Virus record (IMG/VR): IMGVR_UViG_2778261676_000004
Direction: 5' to 3' (one strand)
DNA from: a virus
Lineage: Duplodnaviria; Heunggongvirae; Uroviricota; Caudoviricetes
DNA: 26,907 bases
The position numbers were made by a program, and so were the translations under genes. The notes under the pieces are model-generated. The model was not told where the DNA came from, did not search any database, and saw only the letters and a list, made by a program, of their open reading frames with translations. Of this stretch, positions 4,402 to 14,380 are shown in pieces (the first letter of the stretch is position 1; the number at the start of each line of letters is the position of its first letter).

Positions 4402-4481
4402 TTTGTTTTAACCTCATTACAGATTTAAGGGTGAACAAATCCCTGCCATTGCTGGCATATAAAAATGAAACCGGATATTAA

Positions 4482-4685
4482 TTACGGTGCTGTTTTAAGT
4501 CCTGCCGGGATTTCGTTATTGTCCATGCGAATAACTTTATCAACCGGATAACAGTTGCCGGGAATTTTCTGTTCCGCTGCGGCAGCCATGCATTCTTTCA
4601 TTGAGTCATGTATACCAATAACAAGATCGACTGGTTCGCCTGTATTAAGAAAAACTGTCAGAACGAGTGCAAATGCTGTATTCAT
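4482..4685 (-). CDS. YdfD-like small protein (DUF1482-type)
   Basis: Internal ATG giving MNTAFALVLTVFLNTGEPVD...; hydrophobic N-terminus; lies immediately downstream of dicB as ydfD does in the K-12 Qin prophage (recalled, not searched). Confidence 0.6.
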   Translation of the reverse strand: MNTAFALVLTVFLNTGEPVDLVIGIHDSMKECMAAAAEQKIPGNCYPVDKVIRMDNNEIPAGLKTAP

Positions 4686-4687
4686 TG

Positions 4688-4870
4688 TCAGCGTCCTTTT
4701 TGCATCAGGCGTAAACGGGCCAGCATTGAAACAATGCATATTTGATTTAATAGCTCCCGTTCGTGTTTTCTCTTATTAATGGCATCTTCAGTAAATACAG
4801 GGTTACTGATTCTGACACCAATTTCAAAACAACCTTCAGACGTATTGACGTTTGGTAATAACGTTTCCAT
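4688..4870 (-). CDS. dicB: DicB-like cell division inhibitor
   Basis: 60 aa, METLLPNVNTSEGCFEIGVRISNPVFTEDAINKRKHERELLNQICIVSMLARLRLM, near-identical to my recollection of E. coli DicB (MKTLLPNVNTSEGCFEIGV...); RBS GAGGACG upstream. Confidence 0.8.
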   Translation of the reverse strand: METLLPNVNTSEGCFEIGVRISNPVFTEDAINKRKHERELLNQICIVSMLARLRLMQKGR

Positions 4871-4887
4871 TATCGCGTCCTCAACAA

Positions 4888-5049
4888 TGAATTTTGTGAT
4901 GCGGTGCCTGGTGCCTCCAGGTGACGTTAACTAGTTAACAATTAACGCCGGATACAGAGAACCCACCCATAAGAACCAATACGGAAGTCAACTGGCCTTT
5001 TTAACTGTTCCGCGTGCGCTGAGCCGCATTCACCGCATCACAAAATTCA
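4888..5049. repeat. Perfect 19-bp inverted repeat pair (4888-4906 and 5031-5049) enclosing about 124 nt
   Basis: TGAATTTTGTGATGCGGTG at 4888-4906 and its exact reverse complement CACCGCATCACAAAATTCA at 5031-5049; interior holds the 14-bp palindrome GTTAACTAGTTAAC (4926-4939) and CCTGGTGCCTCCAGG. Confidence 0.85.
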
Positions 5050-5051
5050 CT

Positions 5052-5108
5052 TTAAAAAGGACGGACATCAGCCAGCAATGAAACTGATGCCGCCAAAAGG
5101 TAATCAAC
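5052..5108 (-). ncRNA. dicF: DicF-like small RNA (approximate boundaries)
   Basis: Minus-strand sequence ...TTTTGGCGGCATCAGTTTCATTGCTGGCTGATGTCCGTCCTTTTTAAAGTGAATTTTGTG resembles my recollection of the DicF terminator hairpin and flank; sits between ydfB-like and dicB as in the dicB operon. Ends not determined. Confidence 0.45.
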
Positions 5109-5764
5109 ATGGGTTGTTGCAGCGGGGTTGTCACTCAGGCGTATGGTCAACCTGACAACCCGGTGTCCTCAACAGGGGGAAGGAATAACCCCGCCATACG
5201 TACCGCCGCGCCATTTCGCGGAGTGCCACAACCGGAAGCGCACGGTCGAATTAAATTTAACGACACCGTACAGTGAGACGAACTTCGCCGTGCGCTTTCG
5301 CGTTATGCCCTGACTTTTCAGGGATATATCCTTTCAGTAAACTGTCAGTGCCGGATTCTTATCCGTGTCCGGCGCACGACCACATGTGGCAGCATGTTGG
5401 TCTCCATTTTTAACCCAGAACCTCAATGGAGGATAAAATGTCAGACAAGTTAATTAACCCATTTACCTATCCATCTGTTGCAGCTTTGAACTTAACAGTT
5501 GAGTTAATTCGGGCTGGCAAAATGTCATCCCCTTCAGAGGCGGCTAATTCAGTTATTACAATCCGCAATATATTAAAAGAAGAAAAACAAGCCGCTATGG
5601 AGAAGACTGATAAAGAGCAATAAAGGCTTCTCTGATTTCTTGAGCCAGTTTTTTAGCTGGATCTACCTTTTCTGTCTCCCCGTTCAAAATGAGAGATTTC
5701 AGTGTTTCTGCGGCGATTTTCTGAGTGTCTGGAGGTAAATCTTTAAATTCCATCTTTAACCCCG

Positions 5765-5893
5765 TTAGTCGATAGATTTTGTCGAACTGGAAAGCGCCTG
5801 TTTAAACTCACTGAAGCTGAGAGCCTCTTCGCCTTCGGCAAGGTCTTCGAAGTATTCTTCGTAAGCCTTTTCCATGATTGTGTCGAAATCCAT
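5765..5893 (-). CDS. YdfB-like small protein
   Basis: 42-aa ORF MDFDTIMEKAYEEYFEDLAEGEEALSFSEFKQALSSSTKSID read by hand from the reverse complement (below the track length cutoff); size and position match ydfB of the dicB operon. Confidence 0.55.
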   Translation of the reverse strand: MDFDTIMEKAYEEYFEDLAEGEEALSFSEFKQALSSSTKSID

Positions 5894-5894
5894 A

Positions 5895-6050
5895 TCACTC
5901 ACCTGAGTTTCTTTCCAGCCAGCGACGGGCACCATTTTCGGTTTTAAACGTTTTGCTTTTGGTATACGTCATCGCGGTGAACGTGCCGTCCTGGTTGGGA
6001 AACACGCCGTACACCAGAGATTCGTTGTTGCCAAGATCGATAGTATCCAT
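5895..6050 (-). CDS. YdfA-like small protein (DUF1391-type)
   Basis: Internal ATG of the 78-aa track ORF gives 51 aa MDTIDLGNNESLVYGVFPNQDGTFTAMTYTKSKTFKTENGARRWLERNSGE, matching my recollection of YdfA; first gene downstream of the repressor on the minus strand. Confidence 0.6.
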   Translation of the reverse strand: MDTIDLGNNESLVYGVFPNQDGTFTAMTYTKSKTFKTENGARRWLERNSGE

Positions 6051-6256
6051 GCTGACCTCATTTCCCCTTAACGCCGGGGTAGCGGAACAAAAACCTGCTG
6101 CATAGTTATTAAAGTTGAACCCTGCCGTCATGTTCTTACGCCTCGGGCTGGCTACTTAACCCCTGACCACTGCCTGGTAACTCGAAGTATTGCCCTGCAT
6201 TCTGTGGGGCGGGGTGAGGGAATGAATGAAGTTTAGGAAAATGAACATTTAAGGTC

Positions 6257-6278
6257 AATGTTTTTTTATCAAAACATT
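6257..6278. promoter_or_regulatory. Operator-like inverted repeat downstream of the repressor gene (OL-like position)
   Basis: AATGTTTT (6257-6264) and AAAACATT (6271-6278) are exact reverse complements separated by 6 nt; a third AACATTT copy at 6244-6250. Confidence 0.3.
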
Positions 6279-6342
6279 TTAAGCAGGCAGCTGTTACGCC
6301 ATCACTACGATGGCATACAGTTAATCAAATAGATGAGGTTGG

Positions 6343-6981
6343 TTAAATATCTTGTTGAATTTTAAAGCATACTCCCAATATGCAAGATAGATCATCCAGC
6401 ATAATTGAAGGGTAGCGAGGATTCGTGGGGACTAAAAGAATATCCGGCCCTTCTATCTCCAGTTTGCGAATGACAGGCGTTGTGGTCCCTTTGGGTAAGG
6501 CAAGGACAATATTTCCTGGTTGTACGATTCGATCGGGATCAACAAAAACTGTTGAACCATTTGGGATGGAAACTCCACCACCAGATGTCGACATACTGTC
6601 ACTCTCTAGAACAACAGCAAAGGTATTGGCCGGGATTTCTCCGACAAGCTGCACACAAGAGGTTATTGAGGAATTTTTCATATAATCACTCCAGCTTGCT
6701 GCCTGCTGAAGTGATAGTAGCGGAACCGTTTTTATCGGCGGTAAAGATAGATCAAGCGAATCACCTGTATTTAACTCTCCTCCATTAAGAAGCCAATTTT
6801 CGTTTACTTTCAATATCTTTGCCAGTGAGCTTATGTAACGCGAGGACGGCGCTCCTCCACCGTTCATCCATTGACTTACGGAGCCTTTTGATGCGCCAGT
6901 GGCATTGACAAGGTCTTTGCCTTTCAAGTTTAGCGCATGCATACGTTGGGTTATGCGTTCAGATATTGTTTGCTTGTTCAT
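6343..6981 (-). CDS. cI-like repressor: HTH domain plus S24 LexA-like autopeptidase domain
   Basis: 212 aa; N-terminal HTH-like region; C-terminal VVLESDSMSTSGG (Ser of the S24 Ser-Lys dyad in a GDSM-like context) and later VIRKL; divergent from a Cro-like gene. Confidence 0.85.
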   Translation of the reverse strand: MNKQTISERITQRMHALNLKGKDLVNATGASKGSVSQWMNGGGAPSSRYISSLAKILKVNENWLLNGGELNTGDSLDLSLPPIKTVPLLSLQQAASWSDYMKNSSITSCVQLVGEIPANTFAVVLESDSMSTSGGGVSIPNGSTVFVDPDRIVQPGNIVLALPKGTTTPVIRKLEIEGPDILLVPTNPRYPSIMLDDLSCILGVCFKIQQDI

Positions 6982-7072
6982 GTTTTGATTTTAAAACACA
7001 GATGGTTTTGTTTCTTGACTTTCTTTGGTTTTGATTATTAAACTTTTGGCGTTCAGTTTTATGGAGCGAATC
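6982..7072. promoter_or_regulatory. Divergent promoter/operator region between the repressor and cro-like genes (OR-like)
   Basis: 91-bp AT-rich spacer with direct repeats GTTTTGATT (6982-6990, 7028-7036), GGTTTTG copies and a TTGACT -35-like hexamer at 7015-7020. Confidence 0.35.
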
Positions 7073-7315
7073 ATGAAAAAATCAGAAGTATTAGGCTATT
7101 TTGGCGGAGTTGTTAAAACAGCCGCCGCTCTAGGAACGTCAAAAACCACAGTCAGCATGTGGGGGGAAGACGTTCCGTGGAAATGGGCGTTGCTAATTCA
7201 GGCAGTCACTGCCGGGGCGCTCAAATATGAGTTACACATACCGACGGTTGTCATTCCCGGTTCTGATCATAATCCGCCTTCTAACCAAGGGGGGATTCAT
7301 GAAAATCAAGCATGA
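7073..7315 (+). CDS. Cro-like HTH regulator
   Basis: Internal start MKKSEVLGYFGGVVKTAAALGTSKTTVSMW...; small HTH protein divergent from the repressor; overlaps the next gene by 17 nt. Confidence 0.65.
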   Translation: MKKSEVLGYFGGVVKTAAALGTSKTTVSMWGEDVPWKWALLIQAVTAGALKYELHIPTVVIPGSDHNPPSNQGGIHENQA

Positions 7316-7724
7316 ACACATCCGCATGGCGATGAATGCCTGGGCACGTCCTGATGGCGAAAAAGTTCCGGCAGCTGGAATAACCCAGGCTTATTTTGAG
7401 TTGGGTATGACGTTTCCTGAACTGTACGACGACAGCCATCCGGACGCCCTGGCTCGCAATACCCAGAAAATTTTCCGCTGGATAGAGAAAGACACCCCTG
7501 ATGCAGTTGAAAAAATTCAGGCGTTGTTACCAGCGATCGAAAAGGCAATGCCACCTTTGCTGGTGGCCAGAATGCGCAGCCACAGTTCAGCTTATTTTCG
7601 GGAGCTGGTGGAGACGCGGGAGCGGCTGGTGAGAGACGCTGATGATTTTGTCGCAGTGGCAATCGCCGGTTTCAATCAGATGAACCGTGGTGGCCCGGCA
7701 GGAAATGCTGTGGCAGTACATTGA
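7299..7724 (+). CDS. YdaT-like / CII-like regulatory protein
   Basis: ATG at 7299 preceded by AAGGGGGG; MKIKHEHIRMAMNAWARPDGEKVPAAGITQAYFELGMTF... resembles the YdaT family found after cro in Rac-type prophages (recalled). Confidence 0.7.
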   Translation: MKIKHEHIRMAMNAWARPDGEKVPAAGITQAYFELGMTFPELYDDSHPDALARNTQKIFRWIEKDTPDAVEKIQALLPAIEKAMPPLLVARMRSHSSAYFRELVETRERLVRDADDFVAVAIAGFNQMNRGGPAGNAVAVH

Positions 7725-7795
7725 CTGACAATAGCCATATCGAATCGCTTCCGGCAACTCGTGAGTAAAAAGATTCGGTATCAGAAGAGGTGAGT

Positions 7796-8866
7796 ATGGC
7801 TAACGCCTGGCTCAGATTATGGCATGACATGCCAAATGACCCTAAGTGGCGAACAATTGCCAGGGTGTCAGGGCAGCCAATTGCAACAGTGATGGCAGTG
7901 TATATCCACCTCCTGGTGAGCGCGTCACGAAATGTCACGCGAGGTCACATTGATGTCACGACAGAAGATTTGGCAAGTGCGCTCGACGTGACAGAAGAGG
8001 TAATTGATTCAATTTTGCAGACGATGCAGGGGCGGGTACTTGATGGTGATTTAATCACTGGATGGGAAAAACGCCAGGTGCTTAAAGAGGACAACGGCAA
8101 TATTTCGCAAACCGCAAAATCTCCTGCAGAGCGCAAGAGGGCGCAGCGAGAGAGGGAAAGAAAGCGGGAACAAAATGGCGATTGTCACGGCGCGTCACGA
8201 AATGTCACGCACATGTCACGACGAGTCACGACAGATAAAGATACAGATAAAGATACAGATCAAGAAGATCAAAACACTATGGTCCATGGCGTAAAAAACG
8301 CCACGAACCAGGCAGGGGATGTTCAGACCGTCAATCTTGGTCAGCCAGCAGGCACGACACCGGAAGCCGATTCAGCGTATGCGCTGAAAGCCGATTCGGG
8401 CGCTGTGCAGCAGGTGATGACCGCAAGGCTGGAGCAATCACACCAACTGCAGCAGCCCGAAGCCGATTCCGCCATTCAGCGGGAAGCCGATCGGGTAGTC
8501 CCGGAAAACACCGGGCAGTCTGTGGGACGAGTGGATTATCCGGATGTGTTCGAACAGGTCTGGCGGGAGTACCCGTTGCGTGCCGGAGCAAACCCGAAGA
8601 AATCAGCTTTCAGTGCCTGGAAGGCCAGATTACGCGAGGGGGTGCCACCAGAGGCCATGCTGGATGGCGTGAGGCGTTACGCAAGATACTTGGCGGCTAC
8701 CGGGAAAACGGGAACGGAATTTGTTCAGCGAGCGACGACGTTTTTTGGACCGGACCGGAATTTTGAGAACCCCTGGTTGCTCCCGGTAAGCGGCACGAAC
8801 AACCAGCGTTGTGTGAATCATATTTCTGAACCGGATAACGAAATTCCGCCGGGCTTCAGGGGGTAA
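7796..8866 (+). CDS. Replication initiator, phage O-like (Phage_rep_O-type N-terminal domain)
   Basis: ATG at 7796 with GAGG 6 nt upstream; N-terminus MANAWLRLWHDMPNDPKWRTIARVSGQ typical of O-like replisome organisers; iteron arrays inside the coding sequence. Confidence 0.85.
   Translation: MANAWLRLWHDMPNDPKWRTIARVSGQPIATVMAVYIHLLVSASRNVTRGHIDVTTEDLASALDVTEEVIDSILQTMQGRVLDGDLITGWEKRQVLKEDNGNISQTAKSPAERKRAQRERERKREQNGDCHGASRNVTHMSRRVTTDKDTDKDTDQEDQNTMVHGVKNATNQAGDVQTVNLGQPAGTTPEADSAYALKADSGAVQQVMTARLEQSHQLQQPEADSAIQREADRVVPENTGQSVGRVDYPDVFEQVWREYPLRAGANPKKSAFSAWKARLREGVPPEAMLDGVRRYARYLAATGKTGTEFVQRATTFFGPDRNFENPWLLPVSGTNNQRCVNHISEPDNEIPPGFRG
7921..7962. repeat. Iteron-like cluster 1: four GTCACG/GTCACA repeats at about 10-bp spacing
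   Basis: GTCACG at 7924, 7934 and 7955 and GTCACA at 7944; helical-turn periodicity. Confidence 0.6.
8181..8257. repeat. Iteron-like cluster 2 (candidate ori): five GTCACG repeats then a GATAAAGATACA tandem duplication
   Basis: GTCACG at 8184, 8194, 8204, 8215 and 8225 (10-11 bp spacing), followed by GATAAAGATACAGATAAAGATACAGAT; lies in the apparent inter-domain linker of the O-like protein, as the origin does in lambda O. Confidence 0.65.
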
Positions 8867-8906
8867 GTGTTAATTTCTGGTCATGAGGTAATTTTCAGGA
8901 GGGCTT

Positions 8907-9329
8907 GTGGCAAAAGTTTTTACACAAGAAGAGCGGGAAAAAATTAAAGGACAGGTTGTTGAACTCGTACGCCAGAGTGGGCGTGAGACGTTACGGCAAC
9001 TGGAAGTCAAGACAGGTGCGACAAGATATCTGATGAGCGTTCTCGCAAGAGAGCTGGTTGCCAGCGGCGATGTATACAACTCTGGTTACGGGTTATTCCC
9101 GTCTGAACAGGCGCGTAAGGACTGGCAAAATGCCCGTAAAAAGCTCTCAAGGGCAAAGCTGAAGAAACCATCTGCGGTTGATCCGGACCTTATCTGGTCA
9201 TTACCTGACGGAGAAATACGTCGCTACGACAGGCGTCAGAACATAATCTGTCGCGAGTGCCGGAAGAGTGAAGTTATGCAGCGCATATTGTCGTTTTATC
9301 AGGGTGATGTTCGGTATTTATTGAAGTGA
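8907..9329 (+). CDS. Hypothetical protein following the O-like gene (GTG start)
   Basis: 140-aa ORF; GTG start with GGAGG upstream; basic and Cys-containing C-terminus (CRECRK); occupies the position where a P/DnaC-like helicase loader would normally lie. Confidence 0.55.
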   Translation: MAKVFTQEEREKIKGQVVELVRQSGRETLRQLEVKTGATRYLMSVLARELVASGDVYNSGYGLFPSEQARKDWQNARKKLSRAKLKKPSAVDPDLIWSLPDGEIRRYDRRQNIICRECRKSEVMQRILSFYQGDVRYLLK

Positions 9330-9530
9330 CGAGATTAAAGTGCATTAGTTCAGATGCAAATTGACATTTTGTGGCACAGGGTAGAGCTAGCGTGGTTGTC
9401 CGCTTTGTGCCAGGAGCGGACGTCTAGTTCGCTGAACCACAAAAAGTCGTTTCTAGTTATATTACTGGCTCATTAGTATCTTTATGCGATAATATTTCAT
9501 ACAACCAAAATTATGATGAAGGGAGTTCAA

Positions 9531-10652
9531 ATGGCAATTACGGTCTATTCTCGTACATTCAAAAAGGAATTGGACATGGTTCAATTGTTAAACCATTACT
9601 CATCAGATAACGCACTCAATTTCAGTGATTTCAAGGAATTTGTTGCCTTTGATGCAGAGTGCCCAATTTGCAATGTAAGCGGTGCGATTGTTGTTTCAGA
9701 AGGTTATTCGAAAAGAACAAATAAGATAGTCAGCCAATCTCATTTTTCGTTTAGAACAAAAGACGGAACTGATGCACACAAAGTATTTTGCGATCATTAC
9801 AGTGGTAATGATAAGCAAATAGATTCATCAAGGGATGGTTTTATAAAATTCGGCACCTCAGGTTCTGAGATTACAAGTATAATTCGCGAGCTTGTATGTA
9901 GAGGTATTGAACATGATGAGTTCAATCAGGAAGATATTCGAAACATGCGGCAATGGTTTACAGAATTACGCCAGTCAGGCACTTTTTCTGTTAACTATAG
10001 CCCTCACATGATCAATCTAATAAGGGCCAGCATGTATTCCCGTAAGGGAGAAAGTAAATATATTGTAGATGAAGAGAGGAAAAATAAATCCTGGTTTGAT
10101 ATAAACGATGAAGTGTATCGTTCGTTAAGATTCAAATATCCATCATTGATGATCGACATGACTAATGAAAATAATTCTGTTTTCTATAATCTTGTGAATA
10201 GTACCACATTTACTAAACAAGCACATCGATTAGTAGCACGAGATCGAGGTTATCAGGTTTATGATAGAAGGTTGCTTAAAGAAAAATATGAAGCAACGAT
10301 AAGAGTTGCACAAAAAATAACCAGGCATCACGAATTTCTTTTTAGGAAAATCAGGGGTATATCCGCTGTTAAAAAAAATAACCCCCTTTTGGCTGTATCT
10401 GCCTTGCTTCTTTTTGTCTCGGACTGGAATGAAACAACTGCAATCAACAAATTCATCAAATTGTGTGGTGTAGGGAAATCTAAAAATAATGATGAGGGGA
10501 ATGTAATTGGCTTAAATCCCTTTATTCATTACGATGTCTGGAATGTTATTCATCAACTTAAGGATTTAATGGTTACACTTCCAGACTTCTCAAATCTTGA
10601 TGAAGAATTTGACAGAGAAAAATCCAGATTAATTGAACTTTATAAGCTCTAA
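9531..10652 (+). CDS. Hypothetical protein, cargo gene A (no family recognised)
   Basis: 373 aa from ATG 9531 with AAGGGAG 5 nt upstream; strongly AT-rich coding sequence against a roughly balanced phage backbone; possible metal-binding motifs ECPICN and HKVFCDHY; no Walker A or nuclease motif seen. Confidence 0.8.
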   Translation: MAITVYSRTFKKELDMVQLLNHYSSDNALNFSDFKEFVAFDAECPICNVSGAIVVSEGYSKRTNKIVSQSHFSFRTKDGTDAHKVFCDHYSGNDKQIDSSRDGFIKFGTSGSEITSIIRELVCRGIEHDEFNQEDIRNMRQWFTELRQSGTFSVNYSPHMINLIRASMYSRKGESKYIVDEERKNKSWFDINDEVYRSLRFKYPSLMIDMTNENNSVFYNLVNSTTFTKQAHRLVARDRGYQVYDRRLLKEKYEATIRVAQKITRHHEFLFRKIRGISAVKKNNPLLAVSALLLFVSDWNETTAINKFIKLCGVGKSKNNDEGNVIGLNPFIHYDVWNVIHQLKDLMVTLPDFSNLDEEFDREKSRLIELYKL

Positions 10653-11265
10653 CATAAACTAGCAGGCTGCGTATACAGTCTGCTAATTTTCATAGTAAAG
10701 ACTTCATGCTTCAGTCTCGAGTTGGAGCTATCCGGCACACATCACCCAGGCAATTCAACCGAAATTTTTCATGGGGGGTAGAGAAGTTTTGTCTCGAAGA
10801 TTTGCTTTACAGCATACTAATCATTGAACCTCTGTTGAACCATAAGAAACTGGCAAGCACAATCCGTTGCTTGGGCATTGAATTCGACGATGCGTCGTAT
10901 AGCTCTGACTTGAACAAAACATAAGGTTTTTAGGGCTGCAACAGCACCTCTGTGTCATAGGCGGAAGTTAACAAACATTAAAATCTCTAAATCTGTAGGG
11001 ATCAGACTCCTTCTATAAAAGGATACTGTTCATATCCTTAGTTGTATATAGGTGTGTTTAGAGTATTAGGATGCTAGTTTTGAAAATTAATTTTTTAAAC
11101 ATATTGAATTTTTTAAGAATTGGGAATAGTGTATAGCTTTGTCATGGCGGATTTTTTCTCTTCACGTATTTATTTGAACACTACTTCTTGCACCTGCAAG
11201 GTTACAATATCGTGTAAATTTGTTCACAAAGACATAGATTATAATTTTTACTTAAAGGAAATTCA

Positions 11266-12519
11266 ATGTCAAAAAATCTCCCGGTTTTATTAAGCTCGCC
11301 ATCAACAACTAATTTTCCTGCAACAGTTAATACTGAAATAGAATTCCTTTCGCAAGCTAGAAAGTTGTTAGATTCTGGCTTCCCTGATCATGCTCTTTTA
11401 GATATATGGAATGCATCCATTCATAATCTTAGGCGGCGAATTGAGGCTTATGGTTTAGACTTATTCCTTTCCGCAATAAAGGATGATAGTGGTCGTAAAA
11501 AATATGATAAAGATGGTGAAACAATAAACGAGAGATGGTCAGGTGTAGATGATTTAGTGCTAATAAGTGGAGCCACCAAATTAGGGGTTCTGCATAAGAA
11601 AGCTGGAAAATCATTAGAAATGATCAATTGGATGAGAAACCATGCCTCTCCAGCCCATGCAAGTGATAGTAAAGTAGAGTCTGAGGATGTGTTTGCTTTG
11701 GCTCTTATGCTCCAGAAGAATTTATTCGAATCTGATATGCCAGACCCTGGACATTCGCCATCTGGATTATTTGAACCCATAAAAAAATCTGAACTATCAA
11801 TTGAGAGCATAGACTTACTTAAAGATCAAATAAGAGCATTTAAGCAAGCTGATATAAGAATAACATTTGGATTTTTATTGGATTTAATAACTAAGGGGGA
11901 AAATCCTGCTTATGTTAATGCTAGCAAGTTGTTTGAACAAGCATGGGAAAGATCTAATGATGACCTTAAAAAAACAGCGGGGGAAAGATATCACTCATTT
12001 ATGCTGGAGCCCGAATCGGATACAAGTGAGGATAAAGGAGCAAAAATAAGAATTTTAGAGACTTTAGTAAAAGTTAATGGTGTGAAATTTATACCTGATG
12101 CTGCTAGGGCAAGTTTATACAGACATGCGGTTAAACAGCTAGCTAAAGCTAAGGATACATCTTACGGCTGGAATGATGAAGAAAGAGCAGCCAAGGCACT
12201 TATACAATTTGGACCTCATGTTCCATCTATTGCTTTTGAAGATGTATATCAAGAAATACTTACTGTTTGGGTGGGGAATTACTGGGGAAGATCTGATGCA
12301 CATTTAGTACTTCAACCATTTTTAGATGTGTTAAATAGTAATCAATTGATGGCTCTCTCACGGTTGTTCGTGGAGAATGAAAGAGCAAATTCAGAACTGG
12401 TGTCATCAAGGCCCAAAAGAAGAGCAATAGAATTACTTGAGATAATAAAAAATAATCTAACAATTCAAGCAAGCATTGATGAAATTGATAGGATCATTTC
12501 TGAAATTGATAAAATGTAA
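11266..12519 (+). CDS. Hypothetical protein, cargo gene B (no family recognised; possible HEPN-like R-x6-H motif)
   Basis: 417 aa; ATG 11266 with AGGA upstream; AT-rich; motif WMRNHASPAH (nt 11635-11658) fits the HEPN R-x(4-6)-H pattern, but this is a weak single-motif match. Confidence 0.85.
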   Translation: MSKNLPVLLSSPSTTNFPATVNTEIEFLSQARKLLDSGFPDHALLDIWNASIHNLRRRIEAYGLDLFLSAIKDDSGRKKYDKDGETINERWSGVDDLVLISGATKLGVLHKKAGKSLEMINWMRNHASPAHASDSKVESEDVFALALMLQKNLFESDMPDPGHSPSGLFEPIKKSELSIESIDLLKDQIRAFKQADIRITFGFLLDLITKGENPAYVNASKLFEQAWERSNDDLKKTAGERYHSFMLEPESDTSEDKGAKIRILETLVKVNGVKFIPDAARASLYRHAVKQLAKAKDTSYGWNDEERAAKALIQFGPHVPSIAFEDVYQEILTVWVGNYWGRSDAHLVLQPFLDVLNSNQLMALSRLFVENERANSELVSSRPKRRAIELLEIIKNNLTIQASIDEIDRIISEIDKM

Positions 12520-13152
12520 TTTATTTGCAATTAAGCCATGCTTTTTAGGTGGCTTATTTTTTTTGAATCTACTACTTATATTGATATTAGCAATGTAATT
12601 GCTAAAGTATTCCTAGCCCACTATTCATCTAAATATGGTTGTCGAAAGGCCCGCTTCTCGCTCAAAGCGGACTAGAAGGTTAGCTTGCGTCGGACTTGGC
12701 GTATTTAAAGAAGTGCTGGTGGTGACTGGTTGTTGTGTTCCATTTCTACAGAACAAAATCACAGAAACTATACCCAATAGTTGTATCTCATCAATGATGA
12801 GACAGCCTCATATTTATCAGGACTGGTGTACGTCCAATACAGGAGGTTGTCGTGCTGGTTCTCAAATGTGCGCTGGCTATTGCAGCTGTAATGGCAATTT
12901 ATTGTCTTGCTGTTGTTCTTATGGATCGCCTTTCTGATTGATTTTATATTGGCGAGGTAACGGGAGTTAAGTAGAATGGCTGCGGGTGCTTGAGGCTATC
13001 TGTCTCAGGCATGAACACCAAAGGCAGATAGAGAAAAGCCCCAGTTAACATTACGCGTCCTGCAAGACGCTTAACATTAATCTGAGGCTCAATCTATGAA
13101 CGGCAAATCTAGGTTAGCCTCTTACGTGCCGAAAGGCAAGGAGAAGCAGGCT

Positions 13153-13308
13153 ATGAAGCAGCAAAAGGCGATGTTAATCGCCCTGATCGTCATCTGTTTA
13201 ACCGTCATAGTGACGGCACTGGTAACGAGGAAAGACCTCTGCGAGGTACGAATCCGAACCGGCCAGACGGAGGTTGCTGTCTTCGTGGACTACGAATCTG
13301 AGAAGTAA
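13153..13308 (+). CDS. Hok/Gef-family membrane toxin (type I toxin-antitoxin)
   Basis: 51 aa MKQQKAMLIALIVICLTVIVTALVTRKDLCEVRIRTGQTEVAVFVDYESEK, very close to my recollection of Gef/HokC; RBS AAGGAGAAG; in-frame upstream extension from 13096; 9-bp stem-loop GGCGGGAGA/TCTCCCGCC at 13318-13339 and a T8 run at 13391-13398 downstream. Confidence 0.8.
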   Translation: MKQQKAMLIALIVICLTVIVTALVTRKDLCEVRIRTGQTEVAVFVDYESEK

Positions 13309-13534: not shown

Positions 13535-13894
13535 ATGGCACTCACTGAATTCGGTAAGGCCGTTAGAAAAGCGAGGATAGATACCGACTGCACATTGCTT
13601 ACGATGGCCCAAGAACTGGGAGTAACTTCAGCTTTTCTGAGCGGTTTAGAAACAGGCAGTAAGAAAATCCCCAAAAAATGGGTAAAAGAGATTCAGGCTT
13701 TTTTCCTGAAAAGAGGTTATGAGATTAATAATCTTCAGGAATTGGCTGATGTATCTAATCAGTTTGTTTCCCTTGATGGATTGTCGCAAAATCAGCAAAT
13801 GTTGGTTGCTGGTTTTGCTAAATCCCCATTAACACCAGAGCAGTTAAAGCGAATAGCAGAGTTGATGAAAAGTATTAATCATGTTGAGGGATGA
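13535..13894 (+). CDS. HTH XRE-family transcriptional regulator
   Basis: 119 aa; N-terminal HTH-like TLLTMAQELGVTSAFLSGLETG; ATG with GAGGA RBS; stop immediately before the metallopeptidase gene. Confidence 0.8.
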   Translation: MALTEFGKAVRKARIDTDCTLLTMAQELGVTSAFLSGLETGSKKIPKKWVKEIQAFFLKRGYEINNLQELADVSNQFVSLDGLSQNQQMLVAGFAKSPLTPEQLKRIAELMKSINHVEG

Positions 13895-13897
13895 TCG

Positions 13898-14380
13898 TTG
13901 GAACAATCAGCTTACACATTACGTGGAAATCGTGTTGCACCAATGAGTATTGTTGATATAACAACTCGCGCTGTTAACTATAGCGCGATCTTCGACCTTA
14001 AAACGTTGAAAAGAAAAAAGCGGTTAGACCATGCATTTGAGTTGTTGAGTGAATATGGGATAACGCTCAATATCGTTGAGGATCGTGCGTGGACTAAAGC
14101 TACATATGATTTGACATCTGGGCATTACGATCCAATTACACTTACAATTAGTGTGCCGAATCATACATTTGAGTTGGCATGTAAAGGTGATAGAGAAGCA
14201 TTATTTGTGCTCTTTCATGAAATCGGACATTTGGTGTTGGGGCATAGAGCGTTATTTCACAGTTCCAATAAACCACCTTCGCAAATTGAAGATGCTGAAT
14301 GGCAAGCAGATTTGTTTGCTGAGGTGGTTTTGCGCGAATTAGGATTTTATATGGATCAACTATCATTTGACTTTTTATAA
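13898..14380 (+). CDS. ImmA/IrrE-family zinc metallopeptidase (HEXXH)
   Basis: 160 aa; HEIGHLVLGH contains the HEXXH zinc-binding motif; apparent TTG start 4 nt after the upstream stop, alternative ATG at 13943. Confidence 0.8.
   Translation: MEQSAYTLRGNRVAPMSIVDITTRAVNYSAIFDLKTLKRKKRLDHAFELLSEYGITLNIVEDRAWTKATYDLTSGHYDPITLTISVPNHTFELACKGDREALFVLFHEIGHLVLGHRALFHSSNKPPSQIEDAEWQADLFAEVVLRELGFYMDQLSFDFL

Follow-up and report, generated by a model that had tools for sequence, protein, structure and literature searches.

The nearest functional precedent for one of the two genes described here is HepS (STM14_3211), a solo HEPN anticodon nuclease of the abortive-infection (Abi) type, which is encoded by the Salmonella prophage Gifsy-1 and stays inactive until it is bound by a phage tail protein (PMC13043305). 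Other described HEPN proteins include the HEPN-MNT toxins (SO_3166, PDB 5yep; 8xdj; 7ae2), which are approximately 130 aa long and are neutralized by an adjacent MNT nucleotidyltransferase; the tail-activated HEPN system Tha of S. aureus prophages (PMC11087260); and lactococcal Abi HEPN proteins (AbiA, PDB 8oz7). We analyzed a 26,907-nt stretch of caudoviricete DNA (IMG/VR record IMGVR_UViG_2778261676_000004; hereafter the window), in which an AT-rich block holds two intact genes on the plus strand, gene A (positions 9531–10652, 373 aa) and gene B (positions 11266–12519, 417 aa). An original prediction, made from the sequence alone, had treated this block as a two-gene cargo cassette and a candidate undescribed defense or abortive-infection system. 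We found that genes A and B are two independent, separately acquired single-gene modules, that the gene B product has a HEPN fold and motif, and that the slot in which both genes reside is a real defense hotspot. The best explanation, which we regard as somewhat probable, is that two unrelated cargo modules are stacked in this slot, gene B being a solo Abi-type ribonuclease (RNase) and gene A an independent accessory protein.

Gene B and its HEPN-fold domain

The gene B product consists of an N-terminal HEPN-fold domain followed by a C-terminal helical-repeat domain of approximately 250 aa. The N-terminal domain has the four-helix up-and-down arrangement of HEPN proteins, and an Rx4-6H motif, here R124-N-H-A-S-P-x-H131, is located where the last two core helices meet (at the end of the helix formed by residues 111–126 and ahead of the helix formed by residues 139–154). 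The earlier statement that neither protein carries a nuclease motif is therefore wrong for gene B, whose motif is a HEPN Rx6H. No substitution of R124, N125, H126, or H131 is seen in 47 close homologs, H131 is at least 90 per cent conserved among 56 members of the superfamily (down to 18 per cent identity), and an RNxxSxAHP block is retained in relatives that are 18–25 per cent identical. In fold comparisons, the C-terminal 250 residues come out as helical repeats similar to those of designed repeat proteins and TOG/HEAT domains, and this domain has conserved positions of its own (W227, E305, N338, and G341).

The gene B family comprises 435 clusters in a 90 per cent-identity collection, and 420 representative clusters were recovered by profile search. 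Proteins that are 48–60 per cent identical to gene B and of constant length occur in Cyanobium, Burkholderia, Acidobacteriota, Treponema, Firmicutes, and candidate phyla radiation (CPR) bacteria (loci L005–L030). As the original prediction had anticipated, neither gene B nor gene A belongs to any Pfam, NCBIfam, or PADLOC family (nothing at E ≤ 1 in PADLOC-DB 2.0). Both genes match only PHROGs of unknown function and are hypothetical in all public sources, and we found no description of these proteins, or of the boundary sites discussed below, in the literature searched. The part of the prediction that called the cargo undescribed thus holds for every library searched. Gene B is best described as a putative new HEPN family with a new architecture, and it may represent an architectural variant of the solo HEPN Abi type.

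Like HepS, gene B is a stand-alone gene in a lambdoid accessory slot, where it lies past DUF977 and replication-side genes and has no conserved neighbor. It differs from HepS in its motif (Rx6H instead of Rx4H) and in its additional helical-repeat domain of approximately 250 aa, and no sequence homology between the two was detected in searches of PDB chains at E ≤ 10, although the presence of the HepS entry 9OIK in the searched copy was not checked directly. In comparison to HEPN-MNT toxins, gene B is three times larger and has no conserved neighbor; no adjacent MNT antitoxin, as expected of a type II toxin–antitoxin pair of this kind, was found at 28 gene B loci. Tha and the lactococcal Abi HEPN proteins differ from gene B in architecture and partners, and we found no sequence relationship to either.

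Most probably, gene B would act alone as an abortive-infection-type RNase. Its HEPN domain would dimerize to create a composite active site from R124 and H131, and an infection cue, sensed by the C-terminal helical-repeat domain, would be needed to turn this site on. Once activated, the protein would cut tRNA or another RNA, and phage growth would stop.

The slot and its alternative cargo

The A+B block occupies a slot between two boundary sites, and in other prophages the same slot carries different genes. Among 80 loci that we retrieved, the backbone on the upstream side forms two main clusters, while the downstream 1.5 kb is spread over 40 clusters. The cargo of the slot represents at least 47 protein clusters. 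About a third of the 43 alternative cargo clusters that were scanned have PADLOC matches, which include PD-T7-1, PD-T7-5, ThsB, DarT, DarG, LmuA, an RT-protease, Ago-associated nuclease and TIR proteins, and the candidates PDC-S07, S31, S39, and S66. The slot is a real defense hotspot, and the defense-island setting that had been proposed for the two genes is borne out by the PD-T7-1, PD-T7-5, ThsB, DarT/DarG, and LmuA genes found in the same position elsewhere.

Gene A

Gene A encodes a member of an orphan family, with an N-terminal beta-rich domain that carries conserved C44, C47, H83, and C87, followed by an all-helical domain. With 154 clusters, the family is small; its members are mostly proteobacterial and of uniform length. 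In addition to the four Cys/His positions, E13, D15, D41, Q69, H71, and a C-terminal GNxIGLNPF motif are invariant or nearly so. The C44/C47/H83/C87 set looks like a CCHC metal site, which suggests zinc-type metal binding. No structural relative was found despite a confident structure model: a fold search against BFVD returned only noise, sequence searches toward known structures found nothing, and a profile search for remoter relatives added none with an annotation.

Known or candidate defense genes flank gene A directly in three lineages. In E. coli SF-468, gene A lies between a dCTP deaminase defense gene (PADLOC, E = 5e-127) and a gene for an Ago-associated REase-domain protein; in Pantoea, the PADLOC candidate PDC-S15 (5e-105) starts 1 nt behind the gene A stop codon; and in Serratia, the island that carries a copy of the A+B block abuts Tmn (2e-178). 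We consider gene A to be an independent accessory protein with a helical body of unrecognized fold and, probably, an anti-phage function.

Other surroundings of gene A relatives were also recorded. In Pseudomonas viridiflava and Acinetobacter baumannii, relatives are found directly beside umuD/umuC-type genes (L035/L036, positions 6178–9146; L042, positions 5427–8107). Large HATPase_c_3 proteins are encoded at most 4 kb from the relatives in Pantoea and Acinetobacter. In SSU5-type phages of Salmonella and Klebsiella, relatives of 28–29 per cent identity are situated among small hypothetical genes (L046, which is SSU5, positions 5001–6200).

Defense function and its alternatives

A defense function is plausible for both genes, and the argument for defense or abortive infection is stronger for gene B than for gene A. 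Several observations weigh against this assignment. The HEPN assignment of gene B is drawn only from fold and motif: no curated HEPN model fits gene B (the 56 superfamily members give one match to DUF4145 at E = 0.007 and one to AbiJ at E = 0.07), and searches of PDB chains with gene B profiles and single sequences returned nothing at E ≤ 10 except unrelated proteins. The conservation of gene B across phyla is atypical for fast-evolving defense genes, gene B was not found in 50,697 sequenced phages, and many of its neighborhoods consist of housekeeping genes, as judged from Pfam matches. Gene A has no recognizable catalytic motif, and hotspots carry non-defense and anti-defense cargo as well.

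An alternative explanation is that one or both genes are non-defense morons, which would provide counter-defense, a different route of superinfection exclusion, or modification of host physiology. Approximately two thirds of the slot cargo clusters have no match to a defense model; in Acinetobacter and Pseudomonas, the surroundings of gene A include an AcrVA2-like gene and umuC-type genes; and the small genes around its relatives in SSU5-type phages resemble those of an early region. We nevertheless consider this explanation unlikely, given the known or candidate defense genes that directly flank gene A in three lineages and the nuclease signature of gene B, which is typical of Abi effectors.

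The HEPN fold and motif would also suit a protein that stabilizes mobile elements and does not act against phages, whether as a selfish toxin, as an addiction module, or as a general stress RNase. Distant members of the gene B superfamily are carried by 84 plasmids, including small plasmids of Clostridium perfringens. Additionally, the occurrence of similar proteins in so many phyla would fit a cellular target that is itself conserved. Set against these observations, no conserved antitoxin or other partner is encoded beside gene B, and DNA similarity among gene B loci ends at the borders of the coding sequence (CDS). Without a partner, a free toxin has to inhibit itself, as in the Abi design, and the gene B slot is rich in defense genes. 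An addiction or stress function appears rather improbable.

Two observations from outside this slot are in line with mobile defense cargo. On plasmid pC5103 (L040, positions 4430–5860), the cargo is a 476-aa protein that is a distant full-length member of the gene B superfamily (hhalign 100 per cent, E = 1e-64), has the motif MRNDIGASHPN, and adjoins the same family of small integrases that is described below. Elsewhere, a minority of gene B neighbors are defense genes by PADLOC (type I and type IIG restriction–modification [R–M], PrrC, HEC-06, and MADS). Neighboring genes often encode proteins of approximately 1000 and 500 aa, and we considered whether gene B is embedded in type I R–M operons, but this does not hold generally: of 69 neighbors scanned against Pfam, one was an HsdR and two were methylases, and the rest were mixed housekeeping genes.

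Independence of genes A and B

The original prediction had noted two long open reading frames (ORFs) with good ribosome-binding sites in an AT-rich block, and both features are confirmed. Purine-rich ribosome-binding sites can be read off the sequence 5 nt ahead of each ATG (AAGGGAG at 9519–9525 for gene A and AAAGGAA at 11254–11260 for gene B). A longer reading of gene A from 9513 would give 379 aa, but that start is not used among its homologs; because these begin with MAITVYS or MPITAYS, we take 9531 as the true start. The GC content is 0.355 in positions 9423–12650 versus 0.488 in the remainder of the window, and among 345 other segments of the same length (3.2 kb) the minimum is 0.449. 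GC content at third codon positions is 0.31 in gene A and 0.25 in gene B, versus 0.49–0.55 in the flanking genes. The A+B block is clearly foreign, horizontally acquired cargo.

The 613-nt gap between the two genes is not empty. An intrinsic-terminator-like stem-loop (10660–10685, plus strand), with a 10-pair stem and a T-rich tail, begins 8 nt past the gene A stop codon, which supports the earlier suggestion that the genes are transcribed independently. It is followed, with some overlap, by the decayed remnant of a gene for a small tyrosine recombinase (200 aa when intact); this remnant corresponds to the C-terminal part (10673–10894, plus strand) and was detected by tblastn at 46–49 per cent identity over 88–92 aa to intact or partial integrases of loci L001 and L002 (E = 6e-19 and 2e-21). 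At the junction of the two modules (10933–10967, plus strand) are a decayed post-integrase hairpin, GGGCTGCAACAGCACCTC, and a decayed type-1 core site, TGTGTCATAGGCGGAAG, which we assigned by aligning them by eye to the intact versions behind the integrase genes of L001, L002, L004, and L037–L040. Past gene B, a possible terminator (12533–12564, plus strand; AAGCCA...TGGCTT, then A and T8) was read off the sequence; its loop exceeds 8 nt, and the terminator scan therefore did not call it. Neither gene has a conspicuous sigma-70 consensus promoter on its 5′ side, and the count of promoter-like sites near both genes is not above that of shuffled sequence.

The distributions of the two genes also differ. 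Among 5,426 complete E. coli genomes, gene A is present in 19 and gene B in 13. All 13 gene B-positive genomes share one A+B block that is at least 99.6 per cent identical, which points to a single acquisition. A gene A relative is found near a gene B relative at only 1 of 29 genome loci (17 of them with full 10-kb flanks), in Serratia, and this exception is a 99 per cent-identical copy of the same block. Conversely, gene A occurs without gene B in eight other contexts. In SF-468 and four other E. coli genomes, gene A (91.5 per cent identity) stands alone at a different site and is followed by an integrase fragment. Relatives of gene A with no gene B nearby are found in Pectobacterium, Citrobacter, Salmonella, Pantoea, Acinetobacter, and Pseudomonas, where they are carried by IncFII plasmids, an integrative and conjugative element, the end of a P2-like prophage, and small genomic islands. 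No ORF of at least 80 aa adjacent to gene B is kept across 28 loci, and nucleotide similarity among gene B loci stops at the CDS borders. The survey of homolog co-occurrence that had been proposed as a check on a paired system thus finds each gene without the other in almost all other genomes, and neither conserved co-occurrence nor a shared operon structure was found across lineages.

It is highly improbable that genes A and B form one two-component defense or abortive-infection system, such as a sensor with a HEPN effector. The genes are adjacent and in the same orientation, and they occur together at 99 per cent identity or higher in 13 E. coli genomes and one Serratia genome. However, every co-occurrence is a copy of one block; gene A is missing from 28 of the 29 gene B loci, as gene B is from the eight gene A contexts; and a terminator, a recombinase pseudogene, and a decayed recombination site separate the two. 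Moreover, in strain JMF1 (NZ_CM139231.1, hit H5), an IS903B-family element is annotated inside the block, and the coordinates place extra sequence between the two genes, both of whose CDSs are intact. The notion of a two-gene system, unlike that of undescribed cargo in a defense hotspot, is therefore not borne out. That gene A is part of a replication module, as a lambda P-like helicase loader, is effectively refuted by its distribution, and no structural similarity to lambda P was found.

Because an integrase scar lies between the genes and gene A is found alone elsewhere with an integrase fragment, the modules were probably stacked by successive site-specific insertions into a variable lambdoid prophage slot. 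Module A (approximately 9422–10967) consists of gene A and what is left of the small tyrosine recombinase by which it was once moved, and module B (approximately 10968–12648) consists of gene B, whose own recombinase survives only in the Serratia copy.

Boundary sites and a small tyrosine recombinase

The left boundary of the slot is a type-1 site (9398–9421, plus strand; GTCCGCTT-TGTGCCAG-GAGCGGAC) with 8-bp inverted arms and an 8-bp spacer. The right boundary is a type-2 site (12649–12672, minus strand), which is an inverted copy of the left site with the spacer TGAGCGAG. The two make up the longest inverted repeat of the region, which is 35 nt long (9385–9419 and 12651–12685). Homology among loci with different cargo breaks immediately past the left site, and the right site is common to L003, a locus with other cargo. 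The left site has exact matches in at least 120 viral contigs. When only the arms were used as a query, 149 sites were found in 840 kb of viral contigs, where chance would give approximately three. Of the 69 non-seed sites, 48 belong to the second spacer class and are located downstream in inverted orientation. In 52 of the 80 loci, a right-type site closes the cargo 0.5–5.8 kb away. With arms around an asymmetric spacer, the sites are laid out like recombinase core sites, and the spacers TGTGCCAG and TGAGCGAG suggest two heterospecific classes, a layout that points to putative cassette exchange.

The intact recombinase is 200 aa long and matches Pfam Phage_integrase (7e-18). It is located ahead of gene A in strain 2012EL-2448 (L001, positions 11372–11974) and behind gene B in Serratia montpellierensis (L004, positions 12581–13183), and further copies are present in L037–L040 (positions 6001–6603). 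Every intact copy is followed by a GGGCTGC-AACA-GCAGCCC hairpin and a type-1 core. The recombinase is found in 872 of the 5,426 E. coli genomes, with different neighboring cargo each time, whereas just 3 of the 80 viral loci contain it. In K-12, the Qin pseudogene intK/ydfW may be the same gene. The Serratia island has a 120-aa ORF (L004, positions 12037–12399) between gene B and the intact integrase, which the E. coli copies lack; a suspected RelE/ParE-like identity found no support, as this ORF has no Pfam match.

We considered the junctions as attL and attR of simple integrase-plus-cargo elements and dropped this interpretation; an integrase that sits at the cassette junctions of a slot bounded by two site classes fits better. 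In having two core sites with different spacers, a tyrosine recombinase, and many alternative cargos, the slot resembles integron cassette arrays, as well as the engineered form of recombinase-mediated cassette exchange that uses heterospecific lox or FRT sites. Unlike the integrases of integrons, the slot recombinase is only 200 aa long, and its match is confined to the catalytic Phage_integrase domain. The sites are 24-nt arm–spacer–arm cores and not attC, and the cassettes have inverted sites of two classes at their ends; neither an IntI-type integrase nor attC sites were found for the slot.

Prophage neighborhood

The prophage is lambdoid, of the Qin/Rac type, and carries the block in its early-right accessory region, after DUF977 and before hok/sok. 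Its 5′ neighbors encode a cI-like repressor, Cro, a YdaT-like protein, a 358-aa protein, and DUF977 (assigned from Pfam), and its 3′ neighbors are sok/hok, a helix-turn-helix (HTH) gene, an IrrE/ImmA-like gene, and DUF968. The position between a replication gene and the nin-like region that had been assigned to the block is accurate as to the early-right accessory region, but the O-like label of the 358-aa gene (7790–8866) is unconfirmed, since it has no Pfam family at E ≤ 0.01. Of the neighbors named earlier, the Hok-type toxin belongs to a complete hok/sok module (12984–13308; Pfam HOK_GEF, 1e-22; Rfam sok, 110 bits), approximately 300 nt past the right boundary site. The HTH and IrrE/ImmA-like genes (13535–14380) are present with weak Pfam support, both matches being just under curated cut-offs (HTH_3, 9e-4; Peptidase_M78, 2e-4). 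The same pair also has a weak PADLOC match to HTH_VI.

Implications

Gene B represents a large cross-phylum family with a HEPN fold and motif that no annotation library recognizes. Should it prove to be an Abi RNase like HepS, it would present a new sensor architecture and a testable problem of how a trigger is relayed to an RNase. The fold of gene A, for which the model is confident, is absent among solved or viral structures, and because gene A is located beside known defense genes in three lineages, it is a good candidate for a new mechanism. That gene A founds a single-protein anti-phage function on a fold with no solved relative, and that the slot and the 200-aa recombinase also constitute a natural cassette-exchange system, is a combination we put forward tentatively and regard as doubtful. 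If true, type-1 and inverted type-2 sites would allow defense cassettes to be swapped among lambdoid prophages, plasmids, and chromosomal sites, and the slot would be an undescribed functional analog of integrons. The bracketing sites suggest how such slots are refilled, and they provide a simple sequence rule for harvesting cargo, approximately two thirds of it still unknown, from thousands of prophages.

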